Source: Escherichia phage 348Ecol098PP. Taken from it: DNA of 64,000 nt. Position numbers and translations under genes: made by a program. The DNA lies in the sequence record OR062947.1; one strand, written 5' to 3'. Positions 3,376-36,381 of this stretch are shown here, piece after piece. Position 1 is the first letter of the stretch; every line of letters begins with the position of its first letter. The notes under the pieces are model-generated. The model ran no database searches, was not told the origin of the DNA, and was given only the letters and a program-made list of their open reading frames with translations.

Positions 3376-3825
3376 ATGGCCTACTCTGGTAAATGGGTCC
3401 CAAAAAATTTAAAAAAATACCGTGGAGACCATACCAAAATAACGTATCGTTCAAACTGGGAAAAATTCTTTTTCGAATGGTTGGATAAAAATCCAGAAAT
3501 TATTGCATGGGGTAGTGAAACAGCAGTAATTCCATATTTTTGTAATGCTGAAGGTAAGAAACGTCGATACTATATGGACATATGGATGAAAGATGCATCA
3601 GGTCAAGAGTTTTTTGTAGAAATAAAACCAAAGAAAGAAACTCAACCACCTATTAAACCGGTGAATCTTACAACTGCGGCTAAGAAACGTTATATGAATG
3701 AAATATATACCTGGTCTGTGAACTGTGACAAATGGAAAGCTGCCTCAGCTGTTGCTGAAAAGAGAAATATAAAATTTCGAGTTCTAACCGAAGATGGTCT
3801 TAGAAAACTCGGATACAAGGGGTAA
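3376..3825 (+). CDS. 4: head completion protein gp4
   Basis: [42 protein letters not shown]...; SD AAGGAGG upstream; track ORF trimmed to this ATG. Confidence 0.85.
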
Positions 3826-4751: not shown

Positions 4752-5336
4752 ATGACTCGTCCAGCGAGACAGATTTTTAACCAAACAAATATAACAAACT
4801 TTGTTGTGGATATCCCAGATAGTACACGAACTTCAGGTTTTGTGCTCAATGCCCAAACGGCTCCATTGCCAGGTGTGAGAATTCCTGTTGTTGAAACTGT
4901 GACAGGCACAATGGGGCTAGGACGTGCAATGCGTGCAGGCACCACATTTGAATATGACCCTTTTATTGTACGATTTATAGTTGATGAAGACATGACGTCC
5001 TGGATGAACATGTATAAATGGATGCTCAGCACTAATAATTATATAACCGGCCATAATACGGCCCACTCTGATGGTCCTGAGTTTGTTACTTTGCACATTT
5101 TAAACAACAATAAGACCGAAGTAGTTTTGACGGCAAATTTCTATAAACCATGGATTTCCGATTTGAGTGAAATTGAATTTAGTTACACTGAAGACTCTGA
5201 CCCTGCCGTTACTTGCGTAGCAACTATTCATTACGCGTATATGACGATAGAAAAAGATGGCGAAGTCATTGTATCTCAACAACCACGTCAAGCGGTCGAA
5301 TCTAAATCCATTTCTAGACACCCTTCCTTGCGTTAA
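4752..5336 (+). CDS. 3: tail completion / sheath stabilizer gp3
   Basis: Synteny between 2 and 1; first ATG (MTRPARQ...). Confidence 0.75.
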   Translation: MTRPARQIFNQTNITNFVVDIPDSTRTSGFVLNAQTAPLPGVRIPVVETVTGTMGLGRAMRAGTTFEYDPFIVRFIVDEDMTSWMNMYKWMLSTNNYITGHNTAHSDGPEFVTLHILNNNKTEVVLTANFYKPWISDLSEIEFSYTEDSDPAVTCVATIHYAYMTIEKDGEVIVSQQPRQAVESKSISRHPSLR

Positions 5337-5389: not shown

Positions 5390-6124
5390 ATGGAGCTAAT
5401 CTTTTTAAGTGGCATCAAACGTAGTGGTAAAGACACTACTGCTGATTACATCAATTCAAACTTTAAATCCGTAAAATACCAATTGGCATATCCGATTAAA
5501 GACGCTCTAGCAATAGCCTGGGGACGTAGGCATGCTGAAAACCCTGATGTATTCACAGAGTTGAAATACGAATACTTTGAAGGCATTGGATACGACCGTG
5601 AAACACCATTAAATCTCAATAAGTTGGATGTTATTGAATTATTGGAAGAAGCGCTAATTTATTTGCAAAGTCAATATTTACCAATTAATAATGTTAAAGT
5701 ATTATCATCGTTAGAAGGTGGATATTCGTATCTAGATATTAAACCATATGAAGCCCTGCGTGAAGCTATAAATAATATCAACGACACATGGTCAATCCGC
5801 CGTCTTATGCAAGCCCTCGGTACGGATGTTGTCGTTAATTTATTTGACCGTATGTATTGGGTTAAACTTTTTGCATTAAACTATATGGATTATATTGGAA
5901 GTGATTTCGATTACTATGTCGTAACCGATACACGTCAAGTCCATGAAATGGAAACCGCTAGAGCGATGGGTGCTACAGTTATTCATGTGGTTCGCTCTGG
6001 TACGGAATCCACCGATAAACATATTACAGAAGCTGGGTTGCCTATTGAAGAAGGCGATTTAGTTATTACAAACGACGGCTCTTTAGAAGAGCTTTATTCT
6101 AAAATTGAAACAATCTTAAGGTAA
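5390..6124 (+). CDS. 1: deoxynucleoside monophosphate kinase gp1
   Basis: 244 aa, N-terminal P-loop-like GIKRSGKDT; synteny. Confidence 0.8.
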   Translation: MELIFLSGIKRSGKDTTADYINSNFKSVKYQLAYPIKDALAIAWGRRHAENPDVFTELKYEYFEGIGYDRETPLNLNKLDVIELLEEALIYLQSQYLPINNVKVLSSLEGGYSYLDIKPYEALREAINNINDTWSIRRLMQALGTDVVVNLFDRMYWVKLFALNYMDYIGSDFDYYVVTDTRQVHEMETARAMGATVIHVVRSGTESTDKHITEAGLPIEEGDLVITNDGSLEELYSKIETILR

Positions 6125-6891: not shown

Positions 6892-7203
6892 ATGAAAACT
6901 TATCAAGAGTTTATCGCTGAAGCTACTAAAGCCGATAAAAATTTTATTATTAACACCACCGGTCCGTTAGATGATGAATACGCTAATGCTATTATTAAGT
7001 CAATTTCTAATCAAGGCGTTGAAGTAACAAATTTCGAATATAAGAAAAATGATACTTATATGATAATTAGTATCAAAAAAGGTTCAAAGGCTAAAATTAA
7101 ATCTGCATTTGGTGTTATGCGAGTCGACCAAATCGATAACCACGATTTTTCACAAACAGGGGCCAAACGCCAAAACACCATTTCTTCTAAAGGCATAAAA
7201 TAA
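6892..7203 (+). CDS. internal-protein-like protein with capsid targeting sequence
   Basis: N-terminus MKTYQEFIAE = T4 internal protein capsid targeting sequence (CTS). Confidence 0.75.
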   Translation: MKTYQEFIAEATKADKNFIINTTGPLDDEYANAIIKSISNQGVEVTNFEYKKNDTYMIISIKKGSKAKIKSAFGVMRVDQIDNHDFSQTGAKRQNTISSKGIK

Positions 7204-10976: not shown

Positions 10977-11010
10977 GATGTACAAGCACCAAGGATGGTG
11001 ATACTATAGA
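10977..11010 (+). promoter_or_regulatory. early promoter (atgatgtaca subfamily)
   Basis: TGTACA -35-like, -10-like tactat; related cassettes at 29408, 31368, 32388, 63061. Confidence 0.45.
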
Positions 11011-28224: not shown

Positions 28225-28249
28225 AGGGGGTTAAAATATTTAAAAAAGT

Positions 28250-28285
28250 AGTGTACATGCTTTTAGGATATGTTATTATAGACCT
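28250..28285 (+). promoter_or_regulatory. early promoter
   Basis: gtgtaca ... tgttattatagacctatc. Confidence 0.45.
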
Positions 28286-28317
28286 ATCGAAACGAAATGA
28301 GTAAATTGGAGAATAAA

Positions 28318-29435: not shown

Positions 29436-29723
29436 ATGGATTTTATGCAAAAAATTAAAGCCGCAGTCGAACTGTATGCTCATCGTATGGTTAGTTCTAC
29501 GATGCAATATAGTGAGGAGGTTCGCCAGGACTCTTCCTTGAAAGGAAAAACTAAAGCCTTAATTACCTTAGATCGTTTGCAAAAGAATGCCATAGAGATG
29601 CTCCAGTACGACAAGGGTGTATATAAGAAAGAACAGGAAGAGAAACTTAAATCTGAAAAATTACAAAAAATCCCGAAGTCTGTTTGGTTCAGTGGAAAAA
29701 ATACCGAAAAAAGTTTCTTTTAG
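29436..29723 (+). CDS. hypothetical protein
   Basis: 95-aa ORF with SD agagga. Confidence 0.55.
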   Translation: MDFMQKIKAAVELYAHRMVSSTMQYSEEVRQDSSLKGKTKALITLDRLQKNAIEMLQYDKGVYKKEQEEKLKSEKLQKIPKSVWFSGKNTEKSFF

Positions 29724-29724
29724 T

Positions 29725-29762
29725 TGTTTACAAGGTCTATGGTTATGTTATTATAGACCTAT
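29725..29762 (+). promoter_or_regulatory. early promoter / PeSL
   Basis: GTTTACA; inverted repeat aggtctat/atagacct around tgttattat. Confidence 0.55.
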
Positions 29763-29781
29763 CAACTACTGGAGGTAAAAC

Positions 29782-30311: not shown

Positions 30312-30336
30312 GCTTTACCCAAGGACGGGTTATAAT
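30312..30336 (+). promoter_or_regulatory. early promoter
   Basis: gctttac ... TATAAT. Confidence 0.45.
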
Positions 30337-30371: not shown

Positions 30372-31367
30372 ATGAGCATTACATCTGATGCGGTAAAACA
30401 TGAAATTAACGGTTTATGTGCTTCACAGATTAAAGTGTGGTTTAAAGACCATAACGATCGCAGAGCACTTAATTATGAACAAATTGCTATCCAAGTTCAT
30501 CAATTACTGGTTAGTAAATTTGATTTTCATATGCCGTCTGAAATCTATACTAATCTGCCGCGAGCACTTATTAAAGCGTGTAAAGGTTATGGAAAATCAA
30601 TGGCTGATGGAATCTTCAGCGCGCTGAATAAACTTAACGTTCTGTCGATGATTAACTCTAACAACATCCTGCGTAATCTAGGACGTACTGATTTGTTCGG
30701 CCGTGAACAGTGTAAAATGCCTTTGAAATGGATTGTTGCTCATCTTAACGAGAACCAAACACGTTTTATGGCCGTAACAGCACGCTTACAAATGGGCCTA
30801 GATCGTCAGATGAACTTTAAAACTCATCCACGTTATTCAGGTTCAACTGACTTTTATAAATGTGAGCTTCAAAAGGTTGCAGGTAAAACTGTCTTAGTAG
30901 TTCGTGTAACGTTTGAAGGACGACGTCAAGGATATTTTGACATAATCGGCTCCGGGCTTAAACATTGTGGATTTATCGACGAAGTTGATATCAAGCGAGA
31001 CGGCATTGGATACCGTATTGGATATGTTTGTACTCTTAAAGAAGAGATTTCAGGACCAGCACCAGGACTAAAAGACGTTAGATATAAAGACGAGCTCGTT
31101 GAAGAAATAAAAGAAGTTGAATATGATATCAACCAAGAAGATGCTCTTAAAGACCTTATTGATGAACCGAACCAAGACGTTATTCCTGTTCAGAAATTTG
31201 AATCAAAACATGCTGAGCAAATCAAATACTTTGAAGCTTTGATTAACGAACTTAATGTAACTATTCAACAGACTGACGATGAAATCTCACGATTAGCAGG
31301 TTTAAACGGTAAAAATAAAACAGAACGAGCTAATCTTATTCAGGTAGTAAAACTTCTTAAGGAATGA
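30372..31367 (+). CDS. hypothetical protein with C-terminal coiled coil (array member 1)
   Basis: 331 aa. Confidence 0.6.
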   Translation: MSITSDAVKHEINGLCASQIKVWFKDHNDRRALNYEQIAIQVHQLLVSKFDFHMPSEIYTNLPRALIKACKGYGKSMADGIFSALNKLNVLSMINSNNILRNLGRTDLFGREQCKMPLKWIVAHLNENQTRFMAVTARLQMGLDRQMNFKTHPRYSGSTDFYKCELQKVAGKTVLVVRVTFEGRRQGYFDIIGSGLKHCGFIDEVDIKRDGIGYRIGYVCTLKEEISGPAPGLKDVRYKDELVEEIKEVEYDINQEDALKDLIDEPNQDVIPVQKFESKHAEQIKYFEALINELNVTIQQTDDEISRLAGLNGKNKTERANLIQVVKLLKE

Positions 31368-31396
31368 TGTACAACCAAGGATGGTTGGAGTATAAT
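31368..31396 (+). promoter_or_regulatory. early promoter TGTACA-N17-TATAAT (duplicated cassette)
   Basis: 27-nt tacaaccaaggatggttggagtataat identical at 32390-32416. Confidence 0.6.
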
Positions 31397-31422
31397 AAAT
31401 TTTTCAACATGAGGAATATAAA

Positions 31423-32382
31423 ATGGCTTTTATTACACGTAGAGAACTTATCAAAGAATTTACCTCGAACGCATATACTCCAGGACCTAATCCTATCCGT
31501 ATGCCTGTAAAGACTCCTGAAGAGATTGAGGAAATCTGTTCATATTATGGGATTACTTCTCGTAAGTTTACTCAATTTGAATGCGTTACTAACACACCCG
31601 TTAAAGAGTTCATTAAAAATGGCGAGTTCAGCCGTTTATTGGCCAAACAGAAACTTCGTAATTTTTGTATTGGCGGTGAAGGACAATATTTCGCTAAGCA
31701 GTTCCGGAATAACCTTAACAATCTGATGGCCATTGCTTCTCGTATTCGTCCTCAAGCAATTAACATGAAACATTTGAAATATACTTACGATAAGTTGGAA
31801 ATCATGGTTATCAGTGAGAACGAGTTCACTCTCACGTATAAACCTAAGAATGATAACGTTGCTCGTGTATTCCACCAAGCGTTGGAAGTTTTAGGTGATA
31901 ATATTCACCAGATTAAAGCAATTTATTCTCGTGAGCTTAATATTATCGACCCTATCAAGAATAAGGGCCATATCGCTATCCAAGCTCGTGTATCTATTGG
32001 TAAAAAGGTTCCTGCGCCATGGTGGCACAAAGACTCTGAATACTATCAAAATCTTAAAAAGGAAAATGCATTGTTTGAAGGCAATATTACAGCAACACCA
32101 GTCGGTAATGCAGAGGTTCTAGGCGCATATTCTCCAGCACAATCTGGTATGTTTAAAGGTTTGCCAAATGTGTGCAAACTGTCGGCAGTAAAACTAAATG
32201 TTTCTAATGACCTTCTTCCGGCCGAAGATTATCATTACAACCAAATCAAGGCTACTGTAGACCAACTGTCCGTTGAACTTGACAAAGCACAAGCTAAGCT
32301 TCGTGATGCTCAACAGGTGGTGACCAATCTCCAGTTGCAGTACTCTAAACTTTTTAACGCAATGAATGCATTAAAATCATAA
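31423..32382 (+). CDS. hypothetical protein with C-terminal coiled coil (array member 2)
   Basis: 319 aa. Confidence 0.6.
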   Translation: MAFITRRELIKEFTSNAYTPGPNPIRMPVKTPEEIEEICSYYGITSRKFTQFECVTNTPVKEFIKNGEFSRLLAKQKLRNFCIGGEGQYFAKQFRNNLNNLMAIASRIRPQAINMKHLKYTYDKLEIMVISENEFTLTYKPKNDNVARVFHQALEVLGDNIHQIKAIYSRELNIIDPIKNKGHIAIQARVSIGKKVPAPWWHKDSEYYQNLKKENALFEGNITATPVGNAEVLGAYSPAQSGMFKGLPNVCKLSAVKLNVSNDLLPAEDYHYNQIKATVDQLSVELDKAQAKLRDAQQVVTNLQLQYSKLFNAMNALKS

Positions 32383-32387
32383 AATAG

Positions 32388-32416
32388 TTTACAACCAAGG
32401 ATGGTTGGAGTATAAT
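32388..32416 (+). promoter_or_regulatory. early promoter GTTTACA-N17-TATAAT (duplicated cassette)
   Basis: Near-identical to 31368-31396. Confidence 0.6.
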
Positions 32417-32444
32417 GAATCTATCTTAACGAGAGGAAAATATT

Positions 32445-33392
32445 ATGACACGTTCACATTACATTGAATACTTTGCAGGTCTTATCGCTAACGCTCACGC
32501 TCAACGTGCTACTGGTGCTTGGACTGATGTTCCACATAAAGGTGTGGTTTATAGTATTCTTCGTGATTTTCTTACATACACAGGCCAAGAAAATCATATC
32601 TGTAAAGATACTCAAAATGCATATTCTCATTCATTAGGGACACTGCTTCAATGGTTCAAACGTTCTCGTTTATTATCTTCTACTGTAGCTCGCGATAACA
32701 TTAAAAACTTTATGAAGCCGAGCTTTATTAAATCTGTGACATCTAAAACCGATTTGGTTGAATTCACTATTGTTAATGATGTTAAAAAGACTCATTTGGC
32801 TGATTGGTTATCTACCATTCCTGAAACTAAATTTGCTGATAAATTTGCTTGTGAATTCAATAACCAAGTGAATATGCTTTTTAAACATTCTCGTAAATTA
32901 TTCACAGGCGGCGATGATCGTACAAATACAGTTCATGCTAAAGATTGGGTTACTGCAGTGTTCAAACCAACCGGTAATGGTACCGCATCATTATCAATTG
33001 ATATTCAGGTTCCTTATTATTACTCACGTAATCTCGGCACCATGAAAGCTGAAGAAATTAAGAAGCACAATAAAACCATTCGTTCGTTGTCTTATAAACT
33101 TCGCATGATGTTAAGAATCATGGACGTGGTAGAAATGTATGATGAAACCGAAGATAACGGTTCAATGTTATACAGTTCTCGCATTCAAATTAAGTTGAAG
33201 AACCCTAACGAGTATAAGCCTAAGCCTATTAAAGAGCCTAAAGCAGAAAAAGTTGATAACTTAAGAGAAGAACGCGAATATCTCAAATCTCGTCTGAAAG
33301 AAGTCGAAGCCCAGATTGCAGAACAAACTAAATCGTTAAAAGCTCTGAATGCGAAAGCGGATGGTTTACGAAATGCCATTGAGGTGTTATAA
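32445..33392 (+). CDS. hypothetical protein with C-terminal coiled coil (array member 3)
   Basis: 315 aa. Confidence 0.6.
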   Translation: MTRSHYIEYFAGLIANAHAQRATGAWTDVPHKGVVYSILRDFLTYTGQENHICKDTQNAYSHSLGTLLQWFKRSRLLSSTVARDNIKNFMKPSFIKSVTSKTDLVEFTIVNDVKKTHLADWLSTIPETKFADKFACEFNNQVNMLFKHSRKLFTGGDDRTNTVHAKDWVTAVFKPTGNGTASLSIDIQVPYYYSRNLGTMKAEEIKKHNKTIRSLSYKLRMMLRIMDVVEMYDETEDNGSMLYSSRIQIKLKNPNEYKPKPIKEPKAEKVDNLREEREYLKSRLKEVEAQIAEQTKSLKALNAKADGLRNAIEVL

Positions 33393-33697
33393 TGAAACTA
33401 CGTCTTTTAGAGGATATTGATATGAACACTAATCACCGCTTGGTTAAGTTTATTGACGATAGTTCAAAGATTGAATTTGTTCAGCGAGATAAAATCCACG
33501 GTGAAGAAGAGTTCGTTCCTCCGGCATGGAACGAAATCATGAAAATGGTTGAACGACGTGAAAATGCTGCCAAATCGGCAGCAAAACATCCATGCCCGGA
33601 ATGTGGAACTATCCAAGTCCAACTGGTTAACTGGACCACTGATAACTTGAAATTGAAATGCCGTAAATGCTTCCACAAATTTGAGAGAACATTATAA
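33392..33697 (+). CDS. zinc-ribbon protein
   Basis: CPECG ... CRKCFHKF four-Cys motif. Confidence 0.55.
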   Translation: MKLRLLEDIDMNTNHRLVKFIDDSSKIEFVQRDKIHGEEEFVPPAWNEIMKMVERRENAAKSAAKHPCPECGTIQVQLVNWTTDNLKLKCRKCFHKFERTL

Positions 33698-34110
33698 TGA
33701 GATATAGCCTTCGTTGTTTTATTGCAGCTTTAGTTTTTGCCATCATTCCATTCATTTGGAACAGCCAGAATACTTACATGGAAACTAAAGTAATTCCTGT
33801 GGAGGTAGTGGAATTAATCTCAGGCCAATCTACAGGAAAATATTCTAAATTAGAATTTATTGCAGTCTATAAAGATGAGCAAGGACGAGTTTTTGACAGG
33901 CGTGTATCACCGTCGTTTTATACGCTTCTGAATAAAGGTGATACGATAGCTATAGAAATTCGTGAGATGGATATCAAACAAACTACTAAAGATAACCTGA
34001 TTTGGTTCTTTGGTACGGTGTTGTTGGTTTCTATCTGTATCACAGGTTTTATTACATGTATTGTATTTGGCGTTGCATATTTAATCGATGAAAGGAAAAA
34101 TAATGTTTAA
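33697..34110 (+). CDS. membrane protein
   Basis: N- and C-terminal hydrophobic segments. Confidence 0.55.
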   Translation: MRYSLRCFIAALVFAIIPFIWNSQNTYMETKVIPVEVVELISGQSTGKYSKLEFIAVYKDEQGRVFDRRVSPSFYTLLNKGDTIAIEIREMDIKQTTKDNLIWFFGTVLLVSICITGFITCIVFGVAYLIDERKNNV

Positions 34111-34366
34111 AGTGTACGGGTATGACTCTACTATTCATAAATGCATTTATTGTGATAATGCGAAACGATTGCTGACTGTTAAGAAACAGCCATTCGAATT
34201 CATTAATGTTATGCCAGAAAAAGGTGTGTTCGACGATGAGAAAATTACTGAGCTTCTTGTTAAGCTTGGACGCGAATCACAAGTTGGATTGACTATGCCT
34301 CAAGTGTTTGCTCCTGACGGAAGTCACATTGGTGGATTTGATCAACTGCGAGAATATTTTAAATGA
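34103..34366 (+). CDS. nrdC: glutaredoxin/thioredoxin NrdC
   Basis: MFKVYGYDSTIHKCIYCDNAKRLL... with CxxC. Confidence 0.85.
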   Translation: MFKVYGYDSTIHKCIYCDNAKRLLTVKKQPFEFINVMPEKGVFDDEKITELLVKLGRESQVGLTMPQVFAPDGSHIGGFDQLREYFK

Positions 34367-35089: not shown

Positions 35090-35563
35090 ATGTTATTATC
35101 AGGCGCAAAATATAAAGAAGAAAAACAAAAATTTTATGATGCACAGAATGGTAAGTGTCCTATTTGCCACCGTGAATTAGACCCTGATGTTCAAGGTAAC
35201 CATCTTGACCACGACCATGAATTAAACGGGCCAAAAGCAGGTAGAGTTCGTGGGTTACTCTGTAATCTGTGCAATGCAGCAGAAGGTCAAATGAAGCATA
35301 AGTTCAACCGTTCCGGTCTTAAAAGACGTGATGTCGACTACCTCGAATGGCTTGAAGCTCTTCTTGCTTATTTGAAACAAGATTATTCTGATAATAATAT
35401 CCATCCTAATTTTGTTCCAGACAAAACTAAAGAGTTCTCAAGACTAGGTAAAGAGGAAATGATGTCCGAGATGCTTCAAAGAGGATTTGAATATAATGAA
35501 TCTGATACCAAAACACAATTAATAGCTTCATTCAAAAAGCAGCTTAGAAAGAGTTTAAAATGA
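35090..35563 (+). CDS. 49: endonuclease VII (Holliday junction resolvase) gp49
   Basis: 157 aa; CxxC...HLDHDHELNGPKAG...CNLCN zinc/H-N-H-like motifs; recalled T4 gp49. Confidence 0.9.
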   Translation: MLLSGAKYKEEKQKFYDAQNGKCPICHRELDPDVQGNHLDHDHELNGPKAGRVRGLLCNLCNAAEGQMKHKFNRSGLKRRDVDYLEWLEALLAYLKQDYSDNNIHPNFVPDKTKEFSRLGKEEMMSEMLQRGFEYNESDTKTQLIASFKKQLRKSLK

Positions 35564-36381
35564 ATGTAGTATATAAACTATCATTTATTAATAGAATTAA
35601 TGCTAAAACCCCACCATATTATTACATTGGAAGTAAAACCAATTGCACTTTTGATGGAACGAATATTATTGATAAAAATGGTAAATTTTATTATTCGTCT
35701 TCGTCATCTTCCGAATTTCAAAAAGCCTTATTGAAAGAAACGCCGAAAGTTGAAATATTATATTTTCAATTAGTCGGAGATGAACAAATAACTAGCATTG
35801 AAGCTGAATTTCAAAAGAATATAGAAAAAGATGTATGGAATAAAGAGTATTTTAATTTAGCATATGCTGATGGCAAATTTACGACATATGGTATTTCTCC
35901 TTCTAAAGAAACTAGAGAAAAACAATCAATAACCATGATTAAAAGAAATCGTAATAAAGGCAAAAATCATGGATTTTATGGAAAGCATCATACTAATTTA
36001 GCCAGAAAGAAAATATCAGAAGCTTCTAAAAAATACTGGAAAGAAAATCCGCATCGTGGATTTTCGCATACAAAGGAAGCTAAAATTAAAATTGGAATTT
36101 CATCTTCTATCAGGCATAAAGGAAGTGGAAATCCGATGTATGGTGTAAAACCTTGGAAAACTCCGAACGCAATTAAATCTGGTACTTGTATATTATGGTT
36201 AAAATACGCAGAAATTTTATATGATTATTTAGGTCCAGATTTTAAAAGTAAATCATCTATTTTTGCGGATTTAAACTTACCGAAATTTAGAATTGATAAT
36301 TTCATCAAAAGGTTTAAAATGGGTTGGAACCCATATTTAGACGAAGAATTTCAAAAGGATAAATTAGAATTATGTCTTTAG
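35560..36381 (+). CDS. GIY-YIG homing endonuclease (Seg / I-TevI-like) with NUMOD3-like repeats
   Basis: VYKLSFINRIN...YYYIGSKTN GIY-YIG motif; repeated GxxHxxExKxKIS motifs; strongly AT-rich. Confidence 0.75.
   Translation: MNVVYKLSFINRINAKTPPYYYIGSKTNCTFDGTNIIDKNGKFYYSSSSSSEFQKALLKETPKVEILYFQLVGDEQITSIEAEFQKNIEKDVWNKEYFNLAYADGKFTTYGISPSKETREKQSITMIKRNRNKGKNHGFYGKHHTNLARKKISEASKKYWKENPHRGFSHTKEAKIKIGISSSIRHKGSGNPMYGVKPWKTPNAIKSGTCILWLKYAEILYDYLGPDFKSKSSIFADLNLPKFRIDNFIKRFKMGWNPYLDEEFQKDKLELCL
35560..36381 (+). mobile_element. free-standing homing endonuclease gene between gene 49 and nrdD
   Basis: Same as CDS; composition differs from flanking genes. Confidence 0.6.

Follow-up and report, generated by a model that had tools for sequence, protein, structure and literature searches.

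Three consecutive genes of Escherichia phage 348Ecol098PP, here called g1, g2 and g3, are best explained as one family of paralogues with promoters of their own, from which g2 is excised through a repeat in these promoters and which probably plays a counter-defence role; we put the probability of this explanation as a whole at about 0.7. The genes lie at 30372-33392 of a 64,000-nucleotide (nt) stretch of sequence record OR062947.1, which is referred to below, at its full length, as the window. The three proteins belong to the families of T4 NrdC.6, NrdC.5 and NrdC.3, respectively, and are linked by remote homology; the promoters of g2 and g3 carry an exact 27-nt repeat, and a natural deletion of g2 that leaves one chimeric promoter is found in a related phage. 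The trio sits in the accessory block running from nrdC.10 to nrdC, and the region of T4-type phages that holds this block has already been described as hyperplastic (PMC2839356, PMC4122927). It is thus a fresh example of the known T4 pattern of a hyperplastic region with promoter cassettes (PeSL). The genes are as follows.

30372..31367, plus strand: g1, 331 amino acids (aa), homologue of T4 NrdC.6
31423..32382, plus strand: g2, 319 aa, Pfam DUF7235 (T4 NrdC.5 family), dispensable cassette
32445..33392, plus strand: g3, 315 aa, NrdC.3

Family assignment of g1, g2 and g3

The window comes from a Mosigvirus, an RB69-like T-even phage, and the 3-kb region of the trio is 98.3% identical to Escherichia phage vB_EcoM_SA79RD. 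About 130 other Mosigvirus genomes match the 3-kb region at full length; Tequatrovirus (T4-type) genomes match it at the DNA level in g3 only. The preliminary description of this DNA, made from the letters alone, had reported three consecutive genes of similar length, and they are indeed open reading frames (ORFs) on the plus strand. g1 matched phrog_2257 over residues 1-331 (E 1.6e-127) and T4-type NrdC.6 with 33% identity over 305 aa (E 2e-34); tblastn against the whole phage collection retrieved NrdC.6 at E 1e-27, and close relatives of g1 carry the precomputed Pfam label PF26899. g2 matched the hidden Markov model (HMM) of DUF7235 over residues 15-318 of 319 with 401.7 bits (E 3e-120; cut-off 30), and the same model is matched by T4 NrdC.5 and its JS10 homologue. 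Identity between g2 and T4 NrdC.5 is 23-24% over about 300 aa. The two share the locus slot between NrdC.6-type and NrdC.4/3-type genes, two core motifs and the C-terminal helix, but g2 lacks a 30-aa insert that T4 NrdC.5 has after motif 1. g3 matched phrog_1435 (E 1.4e-104) and is 78% identical to ime09 NrdC.3 and 56% to T4 NrdC.3.

Between genera, the g1 and g2 families retain 23-33% identity, compared with 79-84% for the flanking nrdC.8 and nrdC.10. By tblastn the families were found only in Tequatrovirus, Mosigvirus, Dhakavirus and Gaprivervirus, and the gene sets differ among these. Tequatrovirus has all four of NrdC.6,.5,.4 and.3; the window Mosigvirus carries.6,.5 and.3 and so lacks NrdC.4, while Dhakavirus and Gaprivervirus carry.6,.5 and.4 and lack NrdC.3. 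An exhaustive HMMER search of 1.84 billion proteins with the NrdC.3 profile returned five representatives and no bridging sequences, word-indexed protein searches gave close relatives only, and sequence searches of the PDB found no related solved structure. None of g1, g2 and g3 had a thioredoxin or glutaredoxin Pfam match at E<=0.1; the true NrdC (34088-34366) does match Glutaredoxin. Many GenBank records call the homologues of nrdC.2 to nrdC.11 'thioredoxin', a label which, since g1, g2 and g3 have no thioredoxin domain, must be carried over from the nrdC prefix of the gene names.

Remote homology among the three proteins

The N-terminal domains had been described as unlike each other at the sequence level, and BLASTP among the three gave no match (best E 0.29 to 4.2). 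The same description had proposed a diversified gene family, and here profile-profile comparison bore it out, linking NrdC.6, NrdC.5 and NrdC.3 in one register. For these comparisons sequences from five more phages were added and the last 62 residues were cut off, and therefore the coiled coil could not drive the homology score. The tail-less NrdC.5 family aligned to NrdC.3/4 with a score of 47.4 (88% probability, E 3e-6, z=16, 0/100 shuffles), and the tail-less NrdC.6 family aligned to the merged NrdC.3/4/5 with a score of 36.9 (z=12.7, E 1.3e-4, probability 54%), which none of 100 column shuffles reached. NrdC.3 and NrdC.4 are clearly homologous by hhalign (97% probability). The three pairwise hhalign alignments are consistent in register on two shared helices. 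The first holds motif 1 (LS..A...L.NF), which includes g1 S92, g2 S70 and g3 S78; motif 2 (F..F.xN...L.A.RL) is aligned as well, and MAFFT on 19 sequences placed both motifs in the same columns. The conserved cores lie as follows.

30603..30794, plus strand: conserved core of g1, aa 78-141, motif-1 helix ALNKLNVLSMINSNNILRNL and motif-2 helix IVAHLNENQTRFMAVTARL (hhalign, MAFFT)
31600..31752, plus strand: conserved core of g2, aa 60-110, VKEFIKNGEFSRLLAKQKLRNF and FAKQFRNNLNNLMAIASRI (hhalign against NrdC.3/4, MAFFT)
32634..32903, plus strand: conserved core of g3, aa 64-153, LQWFKRSRLLSSTVARDNIKNF and FACEFNNQVNMLFKHSRKL separated by a 40-aa insert (hhalign, MAFFT; AlphaFold helices 64-72, 75-89 and 127-152)

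On these alignments there is good support for g2 and g3 as diverged paralogues, g1 is probably a diverged paralogue of both, and NrdC.3,.4,.5 and.6, which are separate families in the databases queried, appear to form one superfamily. A single HMM built from all three families brought no gain; it missed NrdC.4 and gave T4 NrdC.5 only 24 bits, and because of this it was not used for the large search.

C-terminal tails

Each gene had been said to end in a charged, heptad-like tail of 50-60 aa. The heptad pattern stood for g2 (1/200 shuffles reached it) and g3 (0/200) but not for g1 (55/200), and enrichment in charge is confined to g3, whose tail is 43% charged against 24% in the rest of the protein; the figures are 30% against 27% for g1 and 22% against 23% for g2. 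The tails, with AlphaFold confidence given as predicted local distance difference test (pLDDT), are:

31185..31364, plus strand: g1 C-terminal tail, about aa 272-331, two helical segments with AGLNGKNK between them, last residues LIQVVKLLKE
32218..32376, plus strand: g2 C-terminal helix, aa 266-318, pLDDT 59-77, heptad score 0.92
33264..33386, plus strand: g3 C-terminal helix, aa 274-314, pLDDT about 70-83, heptad score 0.90, charge-rich

The g1 tail is kept across NrdC.6 proteins of four genera and holds the best heptad window of g1, itself non-significant. Compared as profiles, the tails of NrdC.5 and NrdC.3/4 gave z=7.6, and the tails are related, ending in L..A(L/I)..LK. The members would share a layout of N-terminal helices, the motif-1 and motif-2 helices, a beta-rich middle and the C-terminal helix with this ending, and the terminal helix probably drives oligomerisation.

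Promoters of the trio

A near-identical promoter had been claimed before each gene, those at 31368 and 32388 being duplicates. The duplicates are real, but the promoter before g1 follows a different, MotA-type middle pattern.

30312..30336, plus strand: promoter cassette before g1, GCTTTA at 30312-30317, hairpin ACCC(AAGGAC)GGGT at 30317-30330 and TATAAT at 30331-30336
31363..31405, plus strand: promoter cassette copy 1 (before g2), TGTACA-17-TATAAT at 31368-31396, hairpin CAACCA(AGGA)TGGTTG at 31372-31387, then GGAG; promoter scan 10/12
32383..32425, plus strand: promoter cassette copy 2 (before g3), TTTACA-17-TATAAT at 32388-32416, hairpin CAACCA(AGGA)TGGTTG at 32392-32407, then GGAG; promoter scan 11/12

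Copies 1 and 2 share the exact 27-nt core TACAACCAAGGATGGTTGGAGTATAAT at 31370 and 32390, of which none is expected in shuffles; they are 86% identical over 43 nt and rank among the best sigma-70-type matches of the region in the promoter scan. Before g1, GCTTTA stands 13 nt from the -10 element, as in the T4 middle promoters (GCTT N13-15 TATAAT), and the CCAAGGA hairpin core and TATAAT are shared with the promoters of g2 and g3. By their motifs, then, the g1 promoter is predicted to be of the MotA-dependent type and those of g2 and g3 of the sigma-70 early type, and the SA79RD record independently annotates the g1-promoter site as a T4 middle promoter and copy 2 as a sigma-70-like promoter. 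The terminator scan called no terminator-like site in the intergenic regions of g1-g3.

A hairpin inside the promoters

A stem-AGGA-stem hairpin is present in every promoter module before nrdC.3, nrdC.4, g2, nrdC.6 and nrdC.7 in 13 loci (the window and 12 phage records), which represent four T-even genera, and it is placed between the TTTAC motif and TATAAT. Its stems differ by lineage yet stay complementary: CAACCA/TGGTTG, CATCCA/TGGATG, CTTCCA/TGGAGG, AGCCA/TGGCT, TGCCACA/TGTGGTA, TTATACCA/TGGTATAA and ACCCA/TGGGT. Among 11 distinct variants 90.9% of cells were paired and one pair showed all four Watson-Crick types; covariation scored 0.536, whereas shuffles gave 0.126 (0/500 as high) and slid partners 0.05-0.19, with a bias at the inner pairs, as some of the instances came from a hairpin scan. 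Quasipalindrome correction could keep the arms complementary without selection. The loop can be 3, 5 or 9 nt from the -10 element, a variability that speaks against a fixed promoter element. Three of the window's 14 early-type promoters bear the hairpin, those of g2 and g3 and one at 10979 (hairpin 10983-10996), and the other 11 are without it. In the relatives it lies at these positions, numbered within each locus.

T4/RB55 (locus L002): 3501-3520, 5889-5906 and 6948-6961
JS10 (locus L003): 6766 and 8856
TH55 (locus L130): 5913

In ESCO47 (locus L131, 4185-4215) the promoter before g3 has a broken hairpin with mismatched arms, CAACCA...CGGATG, in which the 3' arm is of the Bp7/Dhakavirus type; it could have arisen by crossing over within the conserved loop or through a pair of point changes. 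The hairpin may act as a DNA hot spot for recombination, or else in read-through RNA. For the RNA case, GGAG follows the hairpin in the early-type modules, but the published RegB consensus GGAGRAYARAA is matched only in part, so that a RegB site was set aside as an idea only. Two further candidates were rejected: the 'StbAB binding site' of ATK48 falls within g1, is on the other strand and has no relation to the promoter repeat, and a pattern scan of IMG/VR for CCAAGGATGG...TATAA was dropped, as the matches listed were mostly chance. The hairpin also touches annotation. In RZ and Bp7 (loci L128 and L129, both at 4962) the annotated nrdC.4 coding sequence begins at an ATG within the hairpin of the promoter (GGATGG). 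The conserved start, MTR, with a Shine-Dalgarno sequence of its own, comes about 20 codons further downstream, and the annotated start is probably mis-called. A related element lies at 35475-35503 of the window within the 3' end of gene 49, where a hairpin TTCAAA(GAGGA)TTTGAA is followed by TATAATGAATCT; this element shares 81% identity with the promoter core of g3, is kept in the window and in 7 of the 12 other loci, and may be a promoter for the downstream gene.

Variation and recombination at the locus

Comparison of relatives showed the locus to be variable, with g1-g3 junctions, internal deletions and genus-specific gene content. In Mosigvirus G2285, g1 is directly followed by g3, g2 is absent and one promoter remains. 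Examined base by base, the G2285 junction consists of the left flank of copy 1, the 27-nt core and the right flank of copy 2, with no base lost or added, and it therefore fits the product expected of homologous exchange within the repeat. A contiguous g1-g3 junction occurs in 21 phage records, and g2 is present in 132. The genomes lacking g2 include p000v, whose g1 is 99% identical to that of the window, and ESCO47, whose g1 is 69% identical, a spread that points to more than a single event. DUF7235 genes hold the same slot in the three other genera, which makes a loss of g2 more likely than a gain. The order and direction of the recombination events are our reconstruction from these junctions. 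We propose that the homologous recombination machinery of the phage would cross over at the 27-nt core of the g2 and g3 promoters and so excise g2 together with one promoter copy, and re-insertion would be possible in principle. The recombination of cassettes that had been suspected for this locus is thus borne out as loss of g2 at the promoter repeat with a chimeric promoter, but not as swapping among the trio itself; the variation seen is loss or gain of the cassette and alternation of NrdC.3 and NrdC.4 between genera.

Two other natural deletions, which speak for the dispensability of these genes, leave tails behind. In ACG-C40 (locus L005, 5730-6140) a deletion runs from about codon 70 of nrdC.5 into the tail of nrdC.3, of which only the C-terminal tail is left, and in Pinarejo (locus L006, 5936-6150) an internal deletion of nrdC.6 leaves only the NrdC.6 C-terminal tail. 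The remnants in both phages are unannotated. In moha (locus L007, 5975-6276) an extra ORF for a 66-aa hydrophobic membrane protein, related to the small ORF that precedes the DUF7235 gene of JS10, lies between g1 and g2, and after it, in front of the g2 promoter, stands an 8-codon remnant of a g2-like tail.

Comparison with known cassette systems

In an integron, cassettes are single-gene units bounded by short repeated sites, which leave as circles and re-enter. The g2-type unit would work in a similar way, but here there is no integrase or attC, each cassette has its own promoter and general homologous recombination is presumed. Closer to the trio are the PeSL cassettes of T4-like phages, for which recombination has been shown experimentally in RB49 and phi1, including excised mini-circles (Arbiol et al. 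2010, PMC2839356; Comeau et al. 2014, PMC4122927). The likeness lies in repeated sigma-70-like early-promoter modules between non-essential genes of a hyperplastic region, and in exchange between neighbouring copies, which deletes the intervening gene and leaves a single chimeric cassette, as in G2285 and the 21 records. The trio hairpin, with its 6-bp stem, AGGA loop and no T-run, differs from the published stem-loop. The locus also resembles the internal-protein (IP) locus of T4, a diverged dispensable block with anti-defence members that is exchanged via conserved flanks; shuffling of the IP locus between related phages is credited to Repoila et al. 1994, as cited in PMC4122927. The IPs differ in being small and packaged via an N-terminal capsid-targeting sequence, whereas NrdC.3-6 are of about 300-340 aa and without such a signal.

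Function and alternative explanations

T4 offers the functional precedent. A T4 deletion clone fails on cells carrying dsr1 from ECOR17, and plasmid-borne nrdC.5 restores its growth (Srikant, Guegler and Laub 2022, PMC9391042); Dsr1 is a sirtuin defence protein, which T4 nrdC.5 counteracts (PMC9391042), and the neighbouring gene 49.2 inhibits OLD in T6 (PMC13096335). We favour counter-defence as the likeliest role that we can infer for g1, g2 and g3, because they appear to be early or middle genes, are dispensable and often lost in nature, and diverge very fast. On this view g1, g2 and g3 are far-diverged paralogues within a single accessory family that has NrdC.4 as its fourth branch, and every one of them would act against an immune protein of its own in the host, as T4 NrdC.5 does against Dsr1.

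Several observations weigh against this interpretation. The link of g1, weakest of the three, covers about 100 aligned columns at 13% identity. The AlphaFold2 model of g3, from an alignment of its own family (29 sequences), has a mean pLDDT of 58, with the N-terminal 80 residues and the tail helix usable, and that of g2, from the merged three-family alignment, has a mean of 48. In Foldseek searches of BFVD the confident matches of both models were each protein's own family only, a strong NrdC.3 match for g3 and RB69 NrdC.5 alone for g2. As both models are of low confidence and the fold searches returned own families only, a common fold of g1-g3 is not demonstrated. Between the g2 and g3 models the helices overlap in 87% of the aligned columns (49% in shifted controls), an agreement that is not independent because the alignment behind the g2 model included g3 relatives. 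The stem-loop of the published PeSLs serves as a terminator and immediately precedes the promoter, and the trio falls outside the strict PeSL definition in this feature because its hairpin lies within the -35/-10 spacer. Finally, the anti-Dsr1 activity of T4 NrdC.5 is not transferable to g2, owing to the low identity of the two.

One alternative proposal is that the three are unrelated ORFans of similar size with generic coiled-coil ends, whose promoters are alike through the T4 early consensus. The silence of BLASTP, the three separate families given by PHROGs and Pfam and models too poor to reveal a common fold all agree with it, but we regard it as quite improbable, since the tail-less profiles score far above column-shuffled nulls (z=16 and 12.7) with alignments that agree in register, and since the 27-nt identity reaches well past the promoter hexamers and the hairpin is found in only 3/14 of the early-type promoters. 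The trio might instead be one family that serves host takeover or phage physiology, for instance by modulating, early in infection, transcription, nucleotide metabolism or the nucleoid. T4 NrdC.5 is the sole member with a tested phenotype, the neighbours nrdC, nrdD and nrdG act in nucleotide metabolism and many GenBank labels read 'thioredoxin', so this proposal deserves a hearing; it is nonetheless unlikely in our judgement. No thioredoxin or enzyme domain was detected, so the label stems from the prefix of the gene names; natural isolates have often lost genes of this set, which evolve much faster than their neighbours; and further counter-defence genes, namely 49.2 (against OLD) and pin (against Lon), lie in the flanking region.

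As to the mechanism, presence or absence of g2 could reflect a homing endonuclease or illegitimate recombination, the promoter repeat being a by-product. Homing endonuclease genes are common nearby (the NUMOD3 ORF at 35560-36381, with mobD, I-TevII and segD present in relatives), amplification of a neighbouring segment by the action of SegB is on record in the literature, and the ACG-C40 and Pinarejo deletions do not have promoter repeats at their ends. The exact G2285 junction, in which a single core joins the upstream flank of copy 1 to the downstream flank of copy 2 without loss or gain of a base, speaks for repeat-mediated excision and makes both of these other routes very doubtful for g2.

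Genomic surroundings

Gene order was read by comparison with the annotated T4-like phages ime09 and RB55. On the plus strand nrdC.10 (28297), nrdC.9 (29436) and nrdC.8 (29782) precede g1, g2 and g3, which are followed by nrdC.2 (33392), an NrdC.7 homologue (33697), the nrdC glutaredoxin gene (34088) and gene 49 for endonuclease VII (35090). The NrdC.7 homologue (33697-34110) is a 137-aa membrane protein with 40% identity and lies between nrdC.2 and nrdC; in T4 nrdC.7 has another position, between nrdC.8 and nrdC.6, a difference in gene order between the genera. NrdC.1 is absent from the nrdC block of the window. Directly after gene 49, at 35560-36381, a 273-aa ORF with a NUMOD3 motif (E 6e-7) is probably a homing endonuclease gene of the seg/mob type. 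A second pair of near-identical early promoters (42 nt, 81%), at 28247-28288 and 29722-29763, stands before the nrdC.10-like and nrdC.8-like genes and could provide further recombination substrates. In BFVD the g3 model also had weak matches (E 1e-4 to 5e-2; template-modelling scores of 0.2-0.27 for E 1e-4 to 1e-3) among 320-370 aa proteins of more distant T4-like phages, which include E5EYP0 and E5EYP1, with adjacent accessions, and proteins of Serratia phages PS2 and CBH8 and Salmonella phage Melville; on these model-based matches, similar tandem genes may exist beyond the T-even genera.

Implications

The widespread 'thioredoxin' label on these genes is wrong. The loss of g2 at the 27-nt promoter repeat is a particularly clean natural case of PeSL modular shuffling, and the covarying hairpin within the promoter offers a defined target for mutation. 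Should the four NrdC families indeed make up a single superfamily, three further T-even genes, both uncharacterised and widely conserved, would count as possible inhibitors of other defence systems, and we nominate NrdC.3, NrdC.4, NrdC.6 and the Mosigvirus subtype of NrdC.5 as candidates for counter-defence. A bolder and rather improbable extension would make NrdC.3-.6 a single fast-evolving counter-defence array, in which each member is tuned to another immune protein and oligomerises via its C-terminal helix, and would make the hairpin promoter a dedicated exchange signal, the phage counterpart of the integron cassette site. Were this true, T-even phages would trade, lose and regain these genes through the hairpin module.

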